In this document: piece after piece, positions 18,719 to 30,938 of the stretch
Layout: every line of letters starts with the position of its first letter
How positions within the stretch are numbered: position 1 is the stretch's first letter
From: an uncultured delta proteobacterium
Lineage (GTDB): Bacteria; Myxococcota_A; Polyangia; Polyangiales; Polyangiaceae
Reading direction: 5' to 3'
NCBI GenBank assembly: GCA_963841435.1
Contig: CAWJCS010000002.1
Span: 832,001 to 896,000, forward strand
Length of the DNA stretch: 64,000 nucleotides
Made by a program: the position numbers and the translations under genes
The notes under the pieces: generated by a model
What the model was told of the DNA's origin: nothing
The model's database searches: none
The model's input: only the letters and a program-made list of their open reading frames with translations

Positions 18719-18846
18719 TCCGCGACAGCGAAACCGCCCTCCCTGATAATCTTTGTGATTTAGGGAGGGCATTTTGCCGATGGCTCGGGCTGCTGCGCGC
18801 TGGGCGCGCTTTTCGTAGAATCCCACGCCATGTTTGGCGCGACGGT

Positions 18847-19326
18847 GATTGTATTTGGTAGAAAGCGCGCCCGAAAGGATTCGCCACCGTCGGCCCAGTT
18901 TGTAACCTTGCGGTACGTCAAGCTGCAGACAGCGCTGCGGAGTCGGACGAAGGTCGAATCCGGTTGTGCAGGCGCAGGGCTTTGACGCGACCTGGATTGA
19001 ATTTGGTAGAAAGCGCGCCCGAAAGGATTCGCCACCGTCGGCCCAGTTTGTAACCTTGCGGTACGTCAAGCTGCAGACAGCGCTGCGGAGTCGGACGAAG
19101 GTCGAATCCGGTTGTGCAGGCGCAGGGCTTTGACGCGACCTGGATTGAATTTGGTAGAAAGCGCGCCCGAAAGGATTCGCCACCGTCGGCCCAGTTTGTA
19201 ACCTTGCGGTACATCAAGCTGCAGACAGCGCTGCGGAGTCGGACGAAGGTCGAATCCGGTTGTGCAGTCGCAGGGCATTTGCGCGACTGGATTGTATTTG
19301 GTAGAAAGCGCGCCCGAAAGGATTCG
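18847..19326. repeat. Tandem array of ~148-bp units (3 full + partial), each carrying 19 bp matching the tRNA-Arg 3' end
   Basis: Units start 18847, 18995, 19143, 19290; GCGCGCCCGAAAGGATTCG at 18865, 19013, 19161, 19308. Confidence 0.95.
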
Positions 19327-19350
19327 AACCTTTGACCTACGGCTCTGGAG
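19308..19350 (-). repeat. att site: 43-bp copy of tRNA-Arg 3' part
   Basis: Matches 30864-30906 with one mismatch (19346). Confidence 0.9.
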
Positions 19351-21371
<2,021 letters not shown>

Positions 21372-23454
21372 TAGTACCAGCCTATCGTTATCGCTGGCGC
21401 GCCCGTGCGCCTGCACTCGAGCATCCTCGACCCGGGTGAGCTCGAAGCCGCCGGAGCCGAGGCCGTGCGAATGGTCGCGATGATCGGCGACCTCGACGAC
21501 CCGGGTACGCACGGCACGAGTAAGCCCGCGCGTGACGAGTGGCGCGCCGAGCGGCTCCCGCGACTCGAGGCAACGGGCCTCGCGTACTACGAGACGCGCG
21601 GCGGTTACCGCCGGCTGAGCGCCTGCTCGCGGAGCCGTTCGCGCTCCGCACGCGCGAGCACGCCGCAACGTGGAGTGACCTCTACCTAGGGTGGTGCGAG
21701 CACGCGTCGCAGGTTTGGGGCCTCGACCTCGATCGTTCGTGCGCGGATTGGACGCGCCTGTATCGCCTCCCCAACGTACGGCGCGATGGCAAGCCGGCCC
21801 GCGCGGCCTTGGACGGCACGCTCGCGCCCTACGATCGGATTGGCGCGGGGCACTGGCGCGAACCGCCCGCGCAGACAAAAACGCGACCAGCGAGCGCGGA
21901 CGAGCCCTCAGTCGGGGCCGCGGACGCGGAGCCCACCGACCGCGCCATGTCCCTCGCCTTCGCGATTGGTGAGGCGTACTACAGCGGCGGGCGCGAGAGG
22001 GTAACGCGCTCCAATGCACGCTCGGGTGGTTCCGCGGCAAGGGTGTGCGCCCCGGCGAAATCGTCGCCATCGTGGACGCCTTATCCGAGGGCGCGACCGA
22101 TTGCGCGAAGTATCTCGCGCTCGCGAGGCGCGTGCACGAGCTCAACGGATCCTACGCGGCCGTCGAGGCGTGGCTAGGGGACGCATACGGCACGGTGGAC
22201 GAACTCGTCACGCGCTTCGCGAACGCGAGCGTTAGCAGCGCGCTCGACCGGCACTACGCTGAGGCGCGCGAACGCGCACGCGAGCGCACCGCAAACGACG
22301 GCGCGAACGCGGACCCGGACGCGAGCAAGTACCGCGTGCCCGAGGACCCGCCGGATGCGCTGCTTCGGCACGGGCGAATGGTGGACCGCTCCAAGCCGCC
22401 GCCGCCTCTCGTGCACGTAATCGAGGGGCTAGACCTGGCACCGGGCAAGGTGAGCGCGATCCAGGCGCTCGCGAACGTGGCCAAGACGCCGCTCGCCTTG
22501 CTGATGACGATTTGCGTAGCAGCTGGCAAGCCTTTCCTCGGATTTGAGGTGCAACAACGCAACGCGCTCTTTCTCGCGTTCGAGGGCGGCACCCTAACGG
22601 AGGAGCGCGAGGCCCGCCTATGCGCGGGGCTCGGCGTCGATCGCGCGAGCGTGCCGCTGCACTTCATGCACGTGGACGCGTCTATCGCGGACAAGGATTT
22701 TAGAGACGACCTCGAGGCGTATATGCGCAAGCACGAGAATCGGCTTCGTAGCGCTCGACACCTACGGGAGCTCTCTACCTGGCGACATTGAGCACAACTC
22801 TGACAAGTTCAGTTACTGGCTCAAGCAACTGGGCAAGGTATCCGACGCGACCGGCGCGCTGATCGTTGTGCTGCTACACGAGAACAAGAGCGCGAACGCG
22901 AGCGGGCTGCGCAAAAGGAGCGGTCACAACTCGGCGCCGGGAGCGATCCAAGCGGCCATCGGATTGGAGCGCGAAAGCGACGACGACCGCACCTTGATTC
23001 GTGTGTACTGTTCGCGCGAGGTGCGAAAGGCGTTCGTGCCGTTTCACGTCCGCTTCACCGACGAGCCGTGCGAGGGCGCACCGACCGGAACTGCGTTGGC
23101 GGCGGCAAAGGTGGCGGCGCCATCGGGTACCAGCGGTGCGGCAAGCCAGCCCTTGAACGCGAATCGGAAGATTGAGGCGGAAGAAAAGACGGCGGCCGCG
23201 GGTCGGCGGCTCTGGGAGCTCTGCGCGACGGCCACAACCACTCCAAGAAGGAGCTCGTTTCGCTAGGCGGGGAAGGCGTGCGGCCGGCGGAAAGGTCGCT
23301 CGCGCGGCTCCGGGAGGCGGGGCTCGTGGACTATGCGAACGGCTACTACACGGTCACGGACGGGGGGCGGACGGCGACCGAGGCCAAGGTGCGGGACGTG
23401 ATTGCCGGCACGGTGACGACCGGCCCGTTCAAGAGGCGCGTCTATGCCGCTTAG
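21372..23454 (+). CDS. Primase (AEP-like) fused to AAA_25/RepA-type helicase with C-terminal winged helix (5' truncated, several frameshifts)
   Basis: GDLDD, YETRGGYR, DWTRLYRLP primase-like motifs; VIEGL..PGKVSAIQALANVAKT, GKPFLG, LFLAFEG, ALDT, VLLHENK; LARLREAGLV. Confidence 0.7.
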
Positions 23455-25139: not shown

Positions 25140-25205
25140 TCGCTCCAATAAACGAGAGCGCTTGCCAATGCGCGGGAGCGTGTCAGAATGCCTGGTATAC
25201 CAGCC

Positions 25206-25803
25206 ATGTCCCGCACCACCTTCGTACTTTCCACCCGCGTTGACCGCGCGACCGCACTCCGGGTCGCCGCTTACTGCGCTTCGCGCTCGCTAAGCACGTT
25301 CAACAATGATTCGGCTCGGCGCCGAAACTGTACTCGCGTCCTCCGCTGACGTGCCTAACGTCGATTGGGCGAAGCAGCTCGAAGCGGTTCGCGTTGCCCT
25401 CGGGCTACCCGCGAGCGTGACTAGTGAGGAGGTCGTCGCGGTACTCGAAGACGTTTTGAGCCGCTTCGCCGAGGCGCAGCAAGTTGACCAGTCGCAATCG
25501 CCAACAGGCGGTATCGCCGATCCCGCGCCCGTATCAGCGGCCCGCGCTAAATCGCTTCTCGAGCCGTGGAACGCGCCGGAGCCGCGCAAACTCTCGCGCA
25601 AAGAAGTTGACGCGTGTCGCGCTCGCGGCATGACCGAGAGCGAGTACCGCGAACGCCTCGCCGCATCCGTGCGACGCAATGGCGAGCTCGCCGCGCCCGC
25701 GCCGCGTGGGCGCACGGACGCGGAAATTGCTGCTTGCGTCACGCGCGGCATGAGCGCCGAAGATTATGCGGCCGCAAAATGTGCGGCCGTGCGCCGTCGA
25801 TAA
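25206..25803 (+). CDS. RHH domain fused to Mu-like scaffold-type region (one frameshift near 25300)
   Basis: MSRTTFVLSTRVDRATALRVAAYCASRSLSTSTMIR; ALGLPASVTSEEV; two C-terminal repeats E..AC..RGM...(E/D)Y. Confidence 0.5.
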
Positions 25804-25811
25804 GGAACCCA

Positions 25812-26579
25812 ATGAACCCCCACATCAACCCCTCCCTCACCGACCGCCTGCATACGCCCGCCGCCGACCTGCTTGCGTGGCGCGACGGTTCGCGCGAGCT
25901 TCACGAGAATTACCTCGTCCAGATCGACGCGGCACTCGCGGACCTGCACGGACGCAAAGACCACGCCGGCAAGTGGGCGCGTGCGGAGCTCGTGACCGAA
26001 CGAAAGACCGTCGCCGATGCGATCGCGGCCGCACCGTCGATAGACGCGGAACGTGCGGCGCTGGCCAGCGCGCTCGACGAATGTACCAAGCGCTCGGCCG
26101 CGGTAACCGTCGCCTCCGAGGTTGACGAGCTCATGCGAGCACGCGCGGCGCTTACGCTCGCGAATCGCGCCGCCGGCGTCGCGCGCGACGCGTTCGTCAA
26201 GGCCGCCGCCACATCTAGATTGCCGGCAATCGGCAAATATCCGTTGCACGCTGGTGTCGCGAAAGCGGCCGATTCGCGCAGCGATCGCGCACTGGCCGAC
26301 GCTGAGAACACATTGTTCACCCGCTATAATGGGCCCGGTTACGCCTGTGCTGGTGTTGACCTCGCCACGCAGGACGGCGCGCGCGTCGAGCCCAATGTAA
26401 TGCCTTGGGTTGTCGCCGATGAGGCGCACTACGAGCTCGCTCACGGCGACTTCCCGATTCCATTTAGGCTCCGCTGGGAGCGCTTTGCCGGTATCAACGG
26501 GTTGCCGTTCGACGAGATCGATTTAGATGAACTCATCGCCCTGGTTAGCGAGGAAGCTCGCGGGACTGCCGCGGAATGA
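25812..26579 (+). CDS. Hypothetical coiled-coil protein
   Basis: AAGGA RBS, 255 aa, Ala-rich helices. Confidence 0.6.
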   Translation: MNPHINPSLTDRLHTPAADLLAWRDGSRELHENYLVQIDAALADLHGRKDHAGKWARAELVTERKTVADAIAAAPSIDAERAALASALDECTKRSAAVTVASEVDELMRARAALTLANRAAGVARDAFVKAAATSRLPAIGKYPLHAGVAKAADSRSDRALADAENTLFTRYNGPGYACAGVDLATQDGARVEPNVMPWVVADEAHYELAHGDFPIPFRLRWERFAGINGLPFDEIDLDELIALVSEEARGTAAE

Positions 26580-26752
26580 TGACCGGCGCCGACGTGGCCG
26601 CGCTTGCGGCGCAAGGGCGACTCGCCGCGACGCTCGCGGCCGAGCCGTTCGACGCGTTCGAGGATGCGATTGAGCGCGCCCGGGCCGACCTTTTGGAGCT
26701 GGCCGTTCTACGTGCCGAGCTTGCCCGCGTTCGCGCCCGCGAGCGGCGATGA
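26576..26752 (+). CDS. Small hypothetical protein
   Basis: 58 aa MMTGADVAALAAQ...; ATGA overlaps at both ends. Confidence 0.5.
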   Translation: MMTGADVAALAAQGRLAATLAAEPFDAFEDAIERARADLLELAVLRAELARVRARERR

Positions 26753-26967
26753 CTTCGGGGCGGTCGGCTTCGTTCATGGGCCAGCCGCCTCGTCTAACTC
26801 CCATGGGTGACACGATGCAACTAGACGACCCCCGTACCCCCGCCGAACGGATTCGCGGCGAGAGCGTCGAACAAGTGCGTGCGCGACTTGAGGCGCGTCG
26901 CGAGCGCAAGGCCGTCGCCAAGGCAAAGCGAGCCGCGCGCAAAGCGTACCGAGCGGGGGCGCGCTAG
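26749..26967 (+). CDS. Small basic hypothetical protein
   Basis: Coupled ORF, K/R-rich C-term. Confidence 0.45.
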   Translation: MTSGRSASFMGQPPRLTPMGDTMQLDDPRTPAERIRGESVEQVRARLEARRERKAVAKAKRAARKAYRAGAR

Positions 26968-27366
26968 ATGGCGGCGCTTACACTCAGCCAATTACGGGCG
27001 CGCCACGACGCACTGAGTCCGAGCGCCTGCCATGGGGAGCGCGCATCGCTCAGATGCCGCGGGCGCTTGCTCGCAAAGAAGCTCGGCATTGACCCGCCCG
27101 CGTGGACGGCAAAACTGCAAAAGCCCGCGCGCCTAGCCGCGCAACGTGGGGAGCGGCCCTCGACTTCGCGAGGGCGCGAGCGAGGCCGTCGAGCCAGAAA
27201 CGCGCAACCAGTTGTGTGGGCGCCCGAGCTGAGCGACTTACGCGGCGTCCTTCCGACAGGCTCGTGTGTGGCCGTTAGCGCGCGCGGCGTGATCGTCAAC
27301 ATTGTGGGCGCCAAACGCCGGCGATTCCTGAGCGTGGACGACGCGCTCGCGGCGGTGCGGTCGTGA
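26968..27366 (+). CDS. Hypothetical protein
   Basis: ATG immediately after previous stop; GTGA overlap with the next ORF. Confidence 0.45.
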   Translation: MAALTLSQLRARHDALSPSACHGERASLRCRGRLLAKKLGIDPPAWTAKLQKPARLAAQRGERPSTSRGRERGRRARNAQPVVWAPELSDLRGVLPTGSCVAVSARGVIVNIVGAKRRRFLSVDDALAAVRS

Positions 27367-27596
27367 GCGAGGTCGTGGTCAAGGTGGTTCGCGTGCAGGG
27401 CCTTAGCGCCGCCCGCTACGCGGCCGTTGACGGCACTATGCCGTCGCGCGACTTACTGGCCGCGTTGATGGCATGGTGCGACGCAGGGCACGCCACGCGG
27501 GCGCGAATGCTACGCGAGCGCTTCACGAAGCTGCTCCGTGAAGCACCGGCCGGGCACTTTCACTTGGTTGCGGGGCCGCATAAGGCGGGAAGCTAG
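27363..27596 (+). CDS. Small hypothetical protein
   Basis: 77 aa coupled ORF. Confidence 0.45.
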   Translation: MSEVVVKVVRVQGLSAARYAAVDGTMPSRDLLAALMAWCDAGHATRARMLRERFTKLLREAPAGHFHLVAGPHKAGS

Positions 27597-27811: not shown

Positions 27812-28006
27812 ATGCGAGACGAGGTCCTAGCACCGCAGGATCTGGCGGAACGCGCCCGTGAGAAGCAGGCGTCGAGGGATGCCGACTATGCGCGTATTGC
27901 CGCCGATGCAAGCGCTGTGGAAGCGGTGCGGGCTGAGAACGCGTTCATTCCCGCCGAGTATTGTCGGGGGCGCATTGATTGGTCACGCAGCAGACCGCGC
28001 ATCTGA
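27812..28006 (+). CDS. Small protein upstream of nucleotidyltransferase (antitoxin-like position)
   Basis: AGGT RBS, MRDEVLAPQDLAERAREKQASRDAD..., overlaps NTase start region. Confidence 0.55.
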   Translation: MRDEVLAPQDLAERAREKQASRDADYARIAADASAVEAVRAENAFIPAEYCRGRIDWSRSRPRI

Positions 28007-28764
28007 TTCAATTTCCGGGGGTTGTCCGCCTACTTGAACGACTTGGGGACGTTCCGCATCGGGTTGTTCTCATCGGCGGGCAGGCGCTGAACGTTTGGTG
28101 CAATCGCTACGCGGGCACAGTTCAGGTAGGACCGTGGCTTCCAGCGAGCAAAGATGTGGACTTCCAGGGAACCTCAACCGACGCAAGGTACGTCGCAGAA
28201 AAACTACGAGGGGGACGTTACCGTCGCGACGATGGATGAAGCACGCGGTCACGTCGCGATCGTGCGCGTTTCTGATAGCGACGGGGCGGAGATTATTCTC
28301 GATCTTCTCGACGCGCCGTTCGGACTCAAGCCAGAAAGGCTATAAGCGAGCGCTCCCGCTATCGCTCCCAGTCTGCAAACGGCTCGATCGTCCTACACGT
28401 AATGCACCCTATTCACTGTCTTGCGAGTCGCCTGCACAATGAAGAATTTGGCCTTCCGCAGCAGTACGACAACGAGCACGGCCGGGCACAGCTGCGAGCA
28501 GCCATTGAGTGCGCGCGAGCGTCGATCCTGGAGCAACTTGGCGAGGGTCACACGCGACCGGCTCTACAGGACGCAAAGGAAGTTTGGGCGCTCGCCACGC
28601 ACTCTCGTGGAATCAAAGCGTTTCATTCGAAGGGCATCGATGTATTCGAGGCCGTTCCGCGAGATCCAAGGTGGCCGAAGTTGTTCCAGGAACGGGAATT
28701 TCCCAAGTTGCAAACGCAGCTCGGTGCGAAGCGGGAAACGCGCAAAAGACGCGACGCGCGATAG
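27979..28764 (+). CDS. Nucleotidyltransferase-fold protein (frameshifted)
   Basis: VLIGGQALNVW, SKDVDF, LDLL..PFGL, MHPIHCLASRLHN across three frames. Confidence 0.65.
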
Positions 28765-29013: not shown

Positions 29014-29539
29014 ATGGGTCGAAACGAGATCGTCCAAGTGGCCTTCAAGGCCGAGGAGGTGGCCCGTGTACGAAGGGAGGGCGCTGAAATGCTGGGGTTG
29101 TCGCTCGCGGCGTACGTCCGGAGGTTGGTGATGTCCACGATCTCCGCGAGGGCTTGGTGGTCGCCCCCGATGATGGGTGCGATGACGGTGGGTGCGGTTC
29201 GAAGCAATGGCGCGAGCCTCATGCGCCGGAACGATCCGGATTTCATTCTCGAGCGCGTGAGTGAAGCCGCGTACCGCTTTCGCGTGTACGTCGGAAGCGA
29301 CGGCTCACCCTTGATGCTCTCCGAGCTTCAAACGTTGAACATCTTTTCGCAGCTCAAGTGGGGCCGAGATCGTGATCGCAGGTAGTGAGCGATCTCTGGC
29401 AGATTGGAGAACGTTCTTTGAGGATGCGGAGACGGGCCAAATCGAGTGGACCCTAATTCTGATCGACGTGACAACTGGGACTTGTTCACGCCCGAACGTC
29501 CCGCCCCACAGCCTCATCGATAACCGCCGCGCGCAATGA
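29014..29539 (+). CDS. RHH-type DNA-binding protein coupled to integrase (frameshift near 29362)
   Basis: IVQVAFKAEEVARVRR..AEMLGLSLAAYVRRLV; corrected frame ends in ATGA overlap with int. Confidence 0.5.
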
Positions 29540-30891
29540 CCGACGACGCTCCGGCCCTCGAGAAGCTCGCCGATGGCTCCGGCTATCGCGTCCGCGTGCG
29601 TTGCGGCAAGGCTCGCACCCGATATCGCATCCCGTACGAACTGACGAGCACTTCGCGGGCTAAGCGCGCGGCCGTGCTCGTGGAGCTAGGCGCGGCGCTC
29701 GGCGAATGAGCCGCCCGAGCTCGCGCGAGCTTGGCTGACGGACGCGGCCGCTGCCGACGGGCCCGGGCTCGCGCGCATTCGCGCGGCCGTAGCGAAGCTC
29801 GCGAGCGGCGCGGTCAAGGTCAAGCGCAAGGCCGAGAACCCGCGCGCCACGTGGACCGTCCGCGAGCTCGGCGAGGCGTGGACGGATGGCACGCTGGCGA
29901 AGGACTACCCCGACCAAGTGAAGGTGCGCGCGTCCGCGAGCGACGACGTGAGCCGGCTCGAGGCGCACGTTTACCCCGTGATTGGTTCGGCGCTCGTTCG
30001 CGCCGTTACGCTCGAGGATTGCGAGCGCGTCATGCGGTCGATCAAGGGTGAGCGCCGCGCGAAGCTCTCACCGGGTACGCGGCGGCATGTCGCGCTCGCG
30101 CTCAACCGTCTTCTAAACCTCGCCGTGTACCCGCTCAAATCCGTGACGGGAACCCGATCCGCGGCAAGGGTTCCTGCCTCGCAAGCCCGACCTGCGAGCG
30201 CTCGCGCTCGCCCACTTGTACCCGGCAGCGAGGACGCCGCGCTCATGGCGTGCGAGGACGTGCCGATTGAGCGCCGTCTGCTTTGGGGTTTCTTGGCGCG
30301 TGAAGGCATGCGCGTTTCGGAGGTGCTCTCGCTCCGGTGGACGGACCTCGACCTTGAACGCGGTGCGGTCGCGCTCGACGAGAACAAAACGGACGAGCCG
30401 CGGGCGTGGGCGCTGGCGCCCGGCGTAGCCGGCGCGCTCGCGCACTTCCACCAGCGGCGCGACCCGGAACGCGTGCTCGTGTTCGAGCAGCCCCCCGAGC
30501 CCGAACGCCTGGCGACGTGGCTTCGCGCCGACCTAAAGGCCGCGGGCGTCCACCGGCCGGCGCTGCATACGCGCGGCAAGGCCCGCCTGGCGATACGGGC
30601 GCACGACCTTCGGGCCTCGTTCGTGACCGTGGGCTTGGCGTGCGGGCGCTCGGAGGCGTGGATCACCGACCGCACTGGGCATCGCTCCCATGAGATGGTG
30701 ACCGCTACCGGCGCGCGGCGCGCCAGGCGTCCGAGCTAGGGCTAGGTGACTGGGCGCCCTTGGATGTCGCGCTAGGGCTCGCCAAGCCATCGCCTCCGCC
30801 GGGTGGCCGCAAGCGCGCCAGCGCCCCACGTGGCCGCCGTGGGACAGCTAGTGGGACAGCTGGGCGCGCCCGAAAGGATTCGAACCTTTGA
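29536..30891 (+). CDS. int: Tyrosine recombinase/integrase (frameshifted)
   Basis: GMRVSE, NKT, HDLR, TGH...Y catalytic set; last frame stops inside att core. Confidence 0.85.
30839..30861. repeat. Tandem 11-bp direct repeat, putative integrase arm site
   Basis: GTGGGACAGCT x2 adjacent to att core. Confidence 0.55.
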
Positions 30892-30938
30892 CCTACGGCT
30901 CCGGAGGCCGTCGCTCTATCCAGCTGAGCTACGGGCGC
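30865..30938 (-). tRNA. tRNA-Arg(CCG)
   Basis: GCGCCCG acceptor stem, TAGCTCAGCTGGATAGAGC D arm, ACGGC-CT-CCG-GA-GCCGT anticodon arm, GGTTCGAATCC; followed by CCCA. Confidence 0.95.

Follow-up and report, generated by a model that had tools for sequence, protein, structure and literature searches.

A frame-broken gene on an island at tRNA-Arg

The window, that is, the whole 64-kb stretch of DNA analysed here, contains an island of ~11.5 kb which is integrated at a tRNA-Arg gene and carries an integrase, a primase-helicase and regulators. The tRNA-Arg(CCG) gene is located at 30863..30938 on the minus strand, with its 3' half (30864-30906) constituting attR, and attL (19308..19350) is a 43-nt copy of that half, 98% identical to 30864-30906. 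Directly after attL, 1573 A residues are followed by 445 T residues (19351..21368); such a run occurs only once more in the 7.78-Mb genome and is taken to be an assembly artefact replacing the left end of the island. The primase-helicase gene of the Prim-Pol/AAA_25 type (21375..23454, plus strand) is split into at least five frame pieces, and tblastn with the intact proteins of contig C6 of the same genome (709 aa, containing Prim-Pol and AAA_25) and of locus L018 (854 aa) placed the frame switches at 21608/21644, 21787/22021, 22734/22736 and 23221. Similarly, the tyrosine integrase gene (29542..30786, plus strand; PF00589), traced with tblastn of the 422-aa integrase of L018, is in three pieces, which occupy frames 1, 2 and 1 and switch at 29682/29711 and 30700/30703. 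Pfam and PHROG scans of the window detected no genes for capsid, portal, tail or terminase on the island. The att repeats at tRNA-Arg, the integrase, the primase-helicase and the lack of virion structural families are, as far as architecture alone is concerned, those of a satellite, a setting that fits the hijacking role proposed in an earlier note on this DNA.

The gene under study (25206..25803, plus strand) is broken. It is the first in a series of genes on one strand (25206-27596) that overlap or are separated by short gaps. Frame A encodes a 47-aa ORF (25206-25349), the start of which resembles a ribbon-helix-helix (RHH) protein, and frame B, open from 25291, encodes an ATG-initiated ORF of 165 aa (25306-25803) with the ALGLPASVTSEEVVAVL stretch and both terminal motifs. 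A four-base step at 25302-25305 turns the two ORFs into a single read-through protein of 198 aa (P0011), in which an RHH-like module is followed by an LGLP linker and two copies of a scaffold-type tail. The +1 frame break has to fall within 25291..25346, since frame B is closed by a stop at 25288-25290 and frame A by one at 25347-25349, and alignment to an intact 216-aa metagenome protein (P0004) across the break places it best at ~25300-25306. Joining the two frames is not arbitrary, because P0011 aligns across the break both with P0004 (81/211 identical, E 4e-29) and with an intact protein of 369 aa from a genome of the same genus (L019:2552-3661, residues 197-368; 59/198 identical, E 1e-10). 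These one-ORF relatives agree with the earlier proposal that removal of one base near 25300 joins the RHH-like N-terminus to the downstream ORF.

Altogether, the island contains at least seven frame breaks, including six in the neighbouring genes, and is either decayed or badly assembled. DNA alignment at two of the helicase breaks revealed indels outside long homopolymers, compatible with error or mutation. Given that the gene under study and at least three other island genes are frame-broken, the copy in the 64-kb window is probably inactive.

Likeness to Mu-type protease-scaffold proteins

The read-through protein resembles the Mu gpI/gpZ prohead protease-scaffold in two of its parts. The LGLP linker (residues 54-96; 25366..25494, plus strand), predicted by AF2 to form helices at residues 54-64 and 73-96, matches head-protease PHROGs (phrog_3894, E 7.7e-6, profile positions 273-327 of 458; and, with the window ORF, phrog_328, E 1.8e-4) and corresponds to the LGL-type beginning of the Mu scaffold gpZ, MNETLRKLLARLGV; gpZ itself is produced from within Mu gene I. 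By itself, the linker match is not specific, because TPR-like repeat proteins without relation to the family (P0003, P0005, P0006 and P0009; E down to 3.9e-10) are matched by the LGLP stretch as well. The second part is the terminal motif, L-S-x-x-E-x-x-A-x-x-x-x-G-x-x-x-x-E-Y, which matches the extreme C-terminus of Mu gpI/gpZ and is present twice, as had been noted previously. Copy 1 (residues 128-157; 25588..25677, plus strand) is a predicted helix-turn-helix with AF2 helices at residues 131-139 and 144-160 (pLDDT 92-94), and copy 2 (residues 168-198; 25708..25800, plus strand), with helices at residues 171-180 and 184-197, forms the extreme C-terminus. In the AF2 model of P0011, the two confident helix-turn-helix tails (pLDDT 92-94) and flexible linkers follow an RHH-like helix pair. 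A Foldseek search of this 198-aa model against the PDB returned nothing at E <= 0.001, and a wide fold search gave a best Z of 4.8.

Profile comparisons relate these tails to viral proteases. With hhalign, the family alignment A3 matched residues 332-355 of the 361 in Mu gpI with E 2e-4 and a probability of only 47%, and a tail HMM built from IMG/VR proteases matched residues 170-191 of P0011 with 8.4 bits, compared to 10.2 bits for Mu gpI itself. When the genome was translated in six frames (95,955 ORFs), the window ORF ranked 4th with the viral tail HMM, at E 2.2, a genome-wide value at which the tail motif alone is not significant. The tail pattern was found within the last 60 residues of 22 of the 45 complete IMG/VR Mu-like proteases, in one copy each and at the extreme end; on this showing, it characterises the C-terminus of viral Mu-like proteases in general. 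The repeat of the related protein P0008 corresponds to positions 289-336 of 339 in phrog_328, the C-terminal end of the profile, and P0017, a classical form of 395 aa, ends in the same ...AVRR signature as the family tail. Matches to head-maturation-protease PHROGs are shared by the window ORF, P0004, P0007 (192 aa), P0008 and the 140-aa paralog on contig C6 (L002:1459-1881(-)).

Furthermore, P0011 is collinear with everything that follows the PF10123 protease domain in the same-genus protein of L019 (residues 197-368), and the protease columns of the alignment have no counterpart in P0011, which lacks the prohead protease domain. The window ORFs had no match in Pfam at E <= 0.1 and did not reach the gathering cut-off of PF10123 (25.2 bits); P0007 (24.5 bits) and P0004 (19.3 bits) are likewise below it, and the protease-bearing sister proteins, at 81.9 and, for L019, 94.7 bits, are above. 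The earlier note had likened the protein to the linker and C-terminal helix of gpI-type proteins, and comparison with profiles of Mu-like proteases and scaffolds bears this out through phrog_3894, phrog_328, the hhalign match to gpI and the collinearity downstream of PF10123.

The N-terminal module (residues 1-47; 25206..25347, plus strand) is probably an RHH domain. AF2 predicts helices at residues 14-26 and 31-47 and leaves residues 1-10 unstructured in the monomer model (pLDDT 42); the RHH fold is weakly supported by weak matches of RHH_1 to P0007 (E 8.5e-4; 19.6 bits, under the cut-off of 20.5) and of RelB to P0004 (E 2.2e-3), and structural matches to the RHH of PutA, TacA and VapB12 (Z 3.1-3.4) are not above background. 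The RHH family is an obligate-dimer fold. An RHH HMM trimmed free of the protease-domain end matched none of the 46 IMG/VR Mu-like proteases. An RHH antitoxin with a downstream toxin was also considered and ruled out, because the C-terminal part is explained by its protease-scaffold homology.

Relatives, neighbouring genes and possible helpers

Three intact single-ORF relatives match P0011 end to end, namely the metagenome proteins P0004 and P0007 and the C6 paralog, the last of which consists of RHH and LGLP followed by a degenerate half of the tail region, with no intact tails. The duplicated tail is retained in P0004, P0007, P0008 and the L019 protein. Thus, homologs encode the modules as a single ORF and not as separate genes, in line with the fusion posited earlier. 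The RHH, however, is not newly joined to a scaffold mimic: sister islands encode protease, RHH and tail within one ORF, and the gene in the window is a protease-less form of this sister-island gene.

The family is rare. A profile search of 5.77 billion proteins recovered seven at E <= 1e-3, six of them with PF10123 and the seventh being P0004, and only three relatives are found among 1.84 billion representatives. With the 165-aa ORF as a query, there was no relative in 60 related genomes, no match other than to itself in a word-indexed search and nothing at E <= 1 in tblastn against 50,697 phage records; phmmer against PDB sequences yielded nothing at E <= 10. Scans with the pattern of alignment A3 produced 115 matches in viral contigs and 272 in genome contigs, none related, and 393 in metagenome contigs, of which one was related, the contig of P0004. 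In a sample of 401 genomes from the phylum, the best eight candidates of each included, beyond the own genome, only an RHH-only protein (G340) and a match in G331, judged spurious as a Cys-rich repeat protein; a weak match within the own genome (L003) is an unrelated locus.

The surroundings of the gene recur as well. A protease/RHH/tail gene, a gene for an all-alpha protein of ~260 aa, a gene for one of ~130 aa and an integrase gene follow one another in the same order at five other loci (the C6 paralog, L008, L018, L019 and L021) that represent four distinct island types, share 30-45% protein identity and include neither capsid nor portal genes; in L008, a large terminase gene adjoins the gene. 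In the window, the next gene is not that of a major capsid protein. It encodes a protein of 255 aa and no known family (25812..26579, plus strand), and in both L019 and L021 a homolog with 34-36% identity immediately follows the protease/RHH/tail gene. AF2 models it as all-helical (pLDDT 69), and searches of the model against the PDB and BFVD retrieved generic helical proteins but nothing at E <= 0.001; the ESM Atlas offered a best match of 0.84 and no named family above 0.9, with Psu at 0.83, below the threshold. That it is a small capsid protein was ruled out, because it is all-alpha, and a complex prediction with the tail region scored 0.07, which is not evidence either way. The conserved 132-aa gene (26968..27366, plus strand) has homologs in the C6 island, L008, L019 and L021, no match in Pfam or among PHROGs and no usable match in the ESM Atlas.

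The earlier note had envisaged a co-resident prophage as the helper, which is not what the genome contains: it is 95% complete and lacks Mu-type or HK97-type capsid proteins, a Mu portal and a large terminase, with no match to PF10123, PF10124, PF05065, PF06074, phrog_328, PF17289, PF03354 or PF03237; the control genomes were silent for PF10123, PF06074, phrog_328 and phrog_3894. By contrast, PF10123 occurs in eight of the 46 other genomes of the genus, and in five of these eight the RHH is absent. At one RHH-less locus (L020), the PF10123 gene lies among phage genes with ORFs that, on reading the sequence, are of tail-sheath and capsid size. Phages with gpI-type proteases occur in the genus, and they are possible helpers.

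Proposed scaffold-tail mimicry and its alternatives

The reading that we favour, at a probability of about one half, is that the gene belongs to a satellite-like island family of Polyangiaceae (Myxococcota) and encodes a CpmB-like scaffold-tail mimic, of which the window holds a frame-broken and probably dead copy. This suggests that the island once parasitised Mu-type phages. As described in PMC5644958, SaPI1 CpmB combines a dimerisation domain with a C-terminus homologous to the scaffold of its helper, competes for the capsid protein and forces the formation of T=4 shells. What the analysis shows is the homology and architecture of the gene, its island setting and its frame breaks; we infer that there is a helper phage and that the intact protein would dimerise, bind its capsid protein and redirect capsid size. 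The intact protein represents a protease-less island form of the Mu gpI/gpZ-type prohead protease-scaffold, with a probable N-terminal RHH, an LGLP helix pair equivalent to the start of gpZ and two short helix-turn-helix tails. In the procapsid of a Mu-like helper, the tails may bind to the inner surface of the shell, at the site that serves the helper's own scaffold and protease, and a compact RHH dimer would stand in for the long coiled-coil body of the helper's scaffold. In this way, the island protein might, like SaPI1 CpmB, both act as a competitor of the helper scaffold and cross-link capsomers, the outcome being either smaller capsids suited to an island of ~10 kb or spoiled helper assembly.

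The likeness to CpmB includes the location of the gene on a small integrase-bearing island devoid of capsid genes and the build of the product, which is small and alpha-helical and has a dimerisation module, presumed in the case of the window protein, at its N-terminus and a scaffold-homologous C-terminus. However, the tail of CpmB is homologous to the capsid-binding end of its own helper's scaffold, whereas that of the window protein is related by homology to the ends of Mu-type scaffolds at large and to that of P0017. The window protein mimics a gpI/gpZ-type scaffold rather than the 80alpha SP, no sequence relation to CpmB was noticed, the presumed dimer module, a probable RHH, belongs to a DNA-binding fold, and the tail is duplicated. 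The family also keeps whole-length homology to protease-scaffolds, sister islands retain the protease and the host is a myxobacterium. The protease domain of the sister islands looks active, a feature that the CpmB analogy does not explain. With Mu gpI/gpZ (PF10123), the window protein shares the LGL-type helix at the starting point of gpZ and the terminal motif, but it is devoid of the protease domain and of the long coiled-coil scaffold body, contains an RHH and two tails instead of one, and its gene lacks a major capsid gene as downstream neighbour. cf-PICIs, as described in 10.1101/2022.09.08.507074, are satellites with their own head genes, including those for protease, capsid, portal and connector; the islands described here resemble them as satellite-type islands with a phage-derived head-morphogenesis gene but hold only the protease/scaffold-derived gene and small genes of unknown kind. 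P4 Sid and Psu and PLE TcaP are likewise satellite proteins that reshape helper capsids, the role suggested for the window protein, but they act outside the shell and involve no mimicry of an internal scaffold, and the only link to Psu here is the sub-threshold ESM Atlas lead for the 255-aa neighbour.

RHH proteins typically repress their own genes, and the same gene could accordingly encode a capsid-sensing regulator, with the RHH repressing the late module at its own promoter until helper capsid protein titrates the tails; it would then be a sensor of helper late-gene expression. A perfect 12-nt palindrome, CTGGTATACCAG (25192..25203), is located 2 nt before the ATG as a candidate operator or promoter element and recurs nearly identically before the ATG of the C6 paralog, even though the DNA further upstream has diverged, and the gene is the first of its same-strand series. 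Yet ~16 such perfect palindromes would be expected by chance per 64 kb (an estimate for uniform composition), the protease-bearing forms start with a different one, GTTAAC, and the interior of a protease protein, where sister islands carry the RHH, is an odd place for a repressor; we deem such regulation unlikely. Distinctly unlikely, in our estimation, is a pure anti-phage decoy, whereby no phage transfer takes place and the protein, joined in its long forms by the protease, poisons Mu-like procapsids and protects the population. It would draw on the same homology evidence (PHROGs, hhalign and collinearity with L019), and the protease and capsid-targeting tail kept in L018, L019 and L021 would suit a poison for foreign procapsids; satellites, moreover, often interfere with their helpers. 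Nevertheless, the island has replication and integration genes of its own and a satellite-typical size, and a decoy overlaps with scaffold-tail mimicry without excluding it.

We also entertain, as a rather doubtful proposition, a two-handed adaptor, with the RHH recognising an operator or packaging site on island DNA and the tails docking on the procapsid protein of the helper. The assembly of capsids would thereby exert direct control over the expression of island genes or pick out island DNA to be packaged, DNA recognition would be linked by a protein to the inside of the phage shell, as in no described satellite, and the protease-bearing sister forms would bring an island-encoded protease into foreign procapsids via the same address tag. 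It is improbable that the gene is a functionless, decaying piece of the head operon of a former Mu-like prophage: the broken genes and the rarity of the family, including the lack of matches to the 165-aa query in the 60 related genomes, would be compatible with this, but P0004, P0007 and the C6 paralog carry the protease-less architecture in unbroken form, and five other loci without capsid or portal genes retain the order of the modules at 30-45% protein identity, which is not expected of random decay. Quite improbable, too, is a tether of the kind proposed in the earlier note, in which the RHH sits on island DNA and the tails on the procapsid or portal, conferring packaging specificity. A DNA-binding fold and a capsid-targeting tail are united in one chain, and the islands of the own genome, having no terminase genes, would need some other specificity device; against this, L008 carries a large terminase beside the gene, and a tether is topologically awkward, because scaffold and protease tails work inside the shell prior to DNA entry (P22, 80alpha, HK97). 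Finally, it is barely conceivable that the 47-aa and 165-aa ORFs are separate, genuine genes or are joined by programmed +1 frameshifting: both ORFs have an ATG, but alignment to relatives shows that the 47-aa ORF has no proper copy of the second RHH helix, which is encoded in frame B, all four other complete short forms and the protease-bearing homologs are, where aligned, single ORFs, and the six frame breaks in the neighbouring genes point to decay or assembly error.

Scaffold-tail mimicry by a satellite would add to a short list, as few ways of reshaping helper capsids are on record (Sid, CpmAB, Ccm, TcaP and Rcm), all of them from Proteobacteria or Firmicutes. Because the copy in the window is broken, the value of the locus lies in the family rather than in the single gene at 25206..25803. 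It points to a satellite-like island family in Polyangiaceae with a captured Mu-type protease-scaffold gene, in which the scaffold body has apparently been exchanged for an RHH module and the protease has been dropped in some lineages. Confirmation of the function would make this a second, independent instance of the mimicry of a scaffold tail and the first candidate satellite system found in myxobacteria, a full-text literature search having returned none, and would yield a short, defined peptide for directing proteins to Mu-type procapsids.

A gene split between two reading frames

The gene at 25206-25803 (+) is divided between a 47-aa ORF in frame A, running from the ATG at 25206 to 25349, and a 165-aa ORF one frame over (frame B, 25306-25803), which includes ALGLPASVTSEEVVAVL and both of the C-terminal motifs quoted in the earlier note. 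Since the nearest stops are a TAA in frame B (25288-25290) and a TGA in frame A (25347-25349), a single +1 break between them parts the two ORFs, and one four-base step at 25302-25305 yields a read-through product of 198 aa (P0011). The proposal that removal of one base near 25300 would join a start resembling a ribbon-helix-helix (RHH) domain to the tail ORF is borne out by P0004, a metagenomic relative that aligns with P0011 straight across the break (81/211 identical residues, E 4e-29).

An exhaustive phmmer search with the 165-aa ORF against 1.84 billion representatives (E <= 1e-3) returned eight proteins. Apart from the query, three are real relatives, namely P0004 (216 aa, E 9.8e-9), P0007 (192 aa, E 7.3e-5) and a partial sequence, P0008 (106 aa, E 4.3e-4), and four are long TPR-like repeat proteins. 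The latter were set aside as unrelated; they match nothing but the 22-40-residue linker helix region (LGLP stretch), many times over, and the LGLP stretch by itself is thus not specific. In P0004 and P0007, one uninterrupted ORF runs from an RHH-like start through the LGLP stretch to two C-terminal scaffold motifs (tails), and the paralog on contig C6 of the same genome (L002:1459-1881, minus strand, 140 aa) likewise combines RHH and LGLP stretch in one ORF, so that the fusion anticipated in the earlier note is found in homologs. The tail of the C6 paralog is reduced to a degenerate half, and its other frames hide no tail. With three relatives in 1.84 billion representatives, the short-form family is rare: a single-protein query of 60 related genomes recovered no relatives, a 400-genome sample of the phylum, with eight candidates scored per genome, no credible relative, and a pattern search of IMG/VR no family member.

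Kinship with Mu-like protease-scaffold proteins

The earlier note had likened the product to the linker and C-terminal helix of Mu gpI-type proteins, and profile similarity to phage scaffolds is indeed present: the window ORF matches phrog_3894 (E 7.7e-6) and phrog_328 (E 1.8e-4), both head maturation proteases, in the post-protease region, and a Pfam scan of the same ORF gave no match. P0007 matches phrog_328 (E 6.2e-8) and RHH_1 (E 8.5e-4) and scores 24.5 bits against the Mu-like protease family PF10123, just below the 25.2 cut-off, and the P0008 repeat covers positions 289-336 of 339, that is, the end of phrog_328. In phage Mu (AF083977), the nested scaffold gpZ begins at MNETLRKLLARLGV, the counterpart of the LGLP stretch, and the C-terminal end shared by gpI and gpZ, AVLSADEQAAVKALGITEAEYLKMK, aligns with the family tail motif (hhalign E 2e-4, probability 47%, 24 columns).

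Of 46 further genomes of this genus, eight carry PF10123, which is absent from the genome under study. In three of these eight loci (L011/L019, L012/L021 and L013/L018), a single ORF of 302-372 aa carries a complete Mu-like protease domain, then an RHH-like segment, the LGLP stretch and one or two tails; the three lie on small islands without capsid genes (L018:9744-10862, L019:2552-3661 and L021:1506-2414). The protease domain scores 81.9 and 94.7 bits in L018 and L019, the two scanned, and the L021 protein is 87% identical to that of L019. Residues 197-368 of the L019 protein (369 aa in all) align collinearly with P0011 (E 1e-10), and the window gene is thus the protease-less form of these protease-RHH-tail proteins.

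A family profile compared with 5.77 billion proteins retrieved seven at E <= 1e-3, six of them with PF10123. The RHH-like segment is also present in the PF10123 carriers P0013-P0015, whereas in P0016 and P0017, classical PF10123 forms, a long helical body takes its place. An HMM built on the RHH segment matched none of the Mu-like proteases from 46 IMG/VR loci, many on contigs of 40-48 kb (best E 0.058, partial); a first version of this HMM had been discarded because the end of the protease domain contaminated it. The RHH is thus a mark of the island forms. By a simple pattern, the tail motif occurs in 22 of 45 complete viral proteases, once each and at the extreme C-terminus, and a viral-tail HMM gave 8.4 bits for P0011 versus 10.2 bits for Mu gpI in a set of 60 proteins. 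Among all 95,955 ORFs from six-frame translation of the genome, the window ORF came fourth, at E 2.2, so the motif by itself would not reach significance, and the homology is carried by collinearity rather than by the motif.

In the model that AF2 built for P0011 from an 11-row alignment (mean pLDDT 75, pTM 0.34), helices lie at 14-26 and 31-47, corresponding to the probable RHH helices A and B, and at 54-64 and 73-96 in the LGLP region; beyond these, flexible linkers carry two tails (131-160 and 171-197), each a helix-turn-helix with pLDDT 92-94. Fold searches with this model gave nothing above noise, with RHH domains at Z 3.1-3.4 only.

A satellite-like island with broken genes

The gene lies between direct repeats of 43 nt (98% identical; attL, 19308-19350, and attR, 30864-30906) that correspond to the 3' half of tRNA-Arg(CCG) (30863-30938). 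The interval encodes a primase-helicase (Prim-Pol/AAA_25) and small regulators together with the gene in question, then a 255-aa gene, several small genes and, beyond a stretch of lower GC, a tyrosine integrase. The capsid, portal, tail and terminase families sought on the island were all absent, and in gene content the island is satellite-like. The 255-aa neighbour is not a capsid protein, being predicted all-alpha and without a fold match. Three tandem units of 148 nt (18833-19287) stand just outside attL, and each includes 28-40 nt of the tRNA-Arg 3' end/att core; they resemble a stack of att remnants left by repeated integration, or an assembly stutter. The lower-GC stretch (27979-28764, ~58%) holds two adjacent ORFs of 86 and 120 aa with no family matches, perhaps pieces of a single cargo gene that has broken; the 86-aa ORF looks a little like a nucleotidyltransferase, an impression that no tool matched. 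A 123-aa ORF just before the integrase (29014-29385), with a weak NikA-like/RHH match (E 0.0073, below the cut-off), might act as another RHH regulator or as an accessory protein in mobilisation.

A module consisting of the protease/RHH/tail gene, a ~260-aa gene, a ~130-aa gene and an integrase recurs with the C6 paralog, on the P0004 contig (L008) and in L018, L019 and L021, with protein identities of 30-72%. Further genes of the intact C6 island encode an excisionase-like HTH_17 protein and a Prim-Pol + AAA_25 protein of 709 aa; L018 encodes a D5_N primase. On L008, a large terminase (531-1904; Terminase_6N/6C, phrog_38 E 1.2e-26) is located two small genes upstream of P0004; an integrase is present, and the 13 kb seen contain no capsid gene. 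The C6 island, the second of its family in this genome (G000:C6:1093900-1103100; L072, L002), has seemingly intact genes, including a 388-aa integrase, and its 140-aa RHH-LGLP protein lacks full tails; an NYN-domain gene is also present downstream.

Comparison with intact homologs by tblastn located frame switches in three genes: the primase-helicase (21608/21644, 21787/22021, 22734/22736 and 23221), the integrase (29682/29711 and 30700/30703) and the gene in question, amounting to at least seven breaks in ~9.5 kb; in the flanking host sequence, long ORFs (560-970 aa) are numerous. A 58-aa 'winged-helix' ORF (23278-23454) is in fact the C-terminus of the primase-helicase in a shifted frame, and matches the intact C6 protein over residues 633-709. 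Directly after attL, positions 19351-21368 consist of 1573 A followed by 445 T, a homopolymer pair with a single counterpart elsewhere in the 7.78-Mb assembly (C6:1694929-1695473); this run is probably an assembly artefact replacing the left end of the island. Given such an apparent fault at the island edge, the frame breaks may be either real decay or local consensus error; two of them, in alignments with the C6 copy, fall outside long homopolymers. The copy in the window is broken.

Possible helpers and a proposed function

In the genome under study (95% complete), no matches were found to PF10123, PF10124 (Mu gpT), PF05065 (HK97 capsid), PF06074 (Mu portal) or phrog_328, nor to the large terminase families PF17289, PF03354 and PF03237, and phrog_3894 matched the two island genes and nothing else. 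Control genomes were also silent for PF10123, PF06074, phrog_328 and phrog_3894; PF10123 did work on the genus genomes. Five of the eight PF10123 loci of the genus are without the RHH, and one of them, L020, is located among phage genes, its neighbours including ORFs of the size of tail-sheath and capsid genes, as judged from the sequences themselves rather than from a family scan. The genus is thus host to phages with a Mu gpI-type scaffold.

The closest worked-out case is CpmB of SaPI1, which, as described in excerpts of PMC5644958, joins an N-terminal dimerisation domain to a C-terminus homologous to the capsid-binding end of the 80alpha scaffold, competes for the capsid protein and, as dimers straddling capsomers, forces T=4 shells. 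P0011 follows the same logic: the probable RHH, an obligate-dimer fold, would stand in for the long scaffold body, with helper-type tails kept, four per dimer. The CpmB analogy gives no reason for the protease kept in the sister islands or for the choice of a DNA-binding fold, and does not cover the role of the conserved 255-aa and 132-aa neighbours. Listings and abstracts returned by full-text literature searching held nothing relevant on satellites with Mu-like scaffolds or in Myxococcota.

The RHH might also, with lower probability, have a regulatory or DNA-tether role, given that a perfect 12-nt palindrome, CTGGTATACCAG (25192-25203), lies 2 nt before the ATG and is common to the C6 paralog, in which the last ~17 nt before the start are nearly identical and the DNA further upstream differs; the protease-bearing forms have GTTAAC at the start in its place. 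By analogy with CpmB, scaffold-tail mimicry is the most likely function, at a probability of about one half. On computational evidence, and with its copy broken, we class the gene as a putative satellite scaffold mimic, which would redirect the capsid size of a helper or interfere with it.
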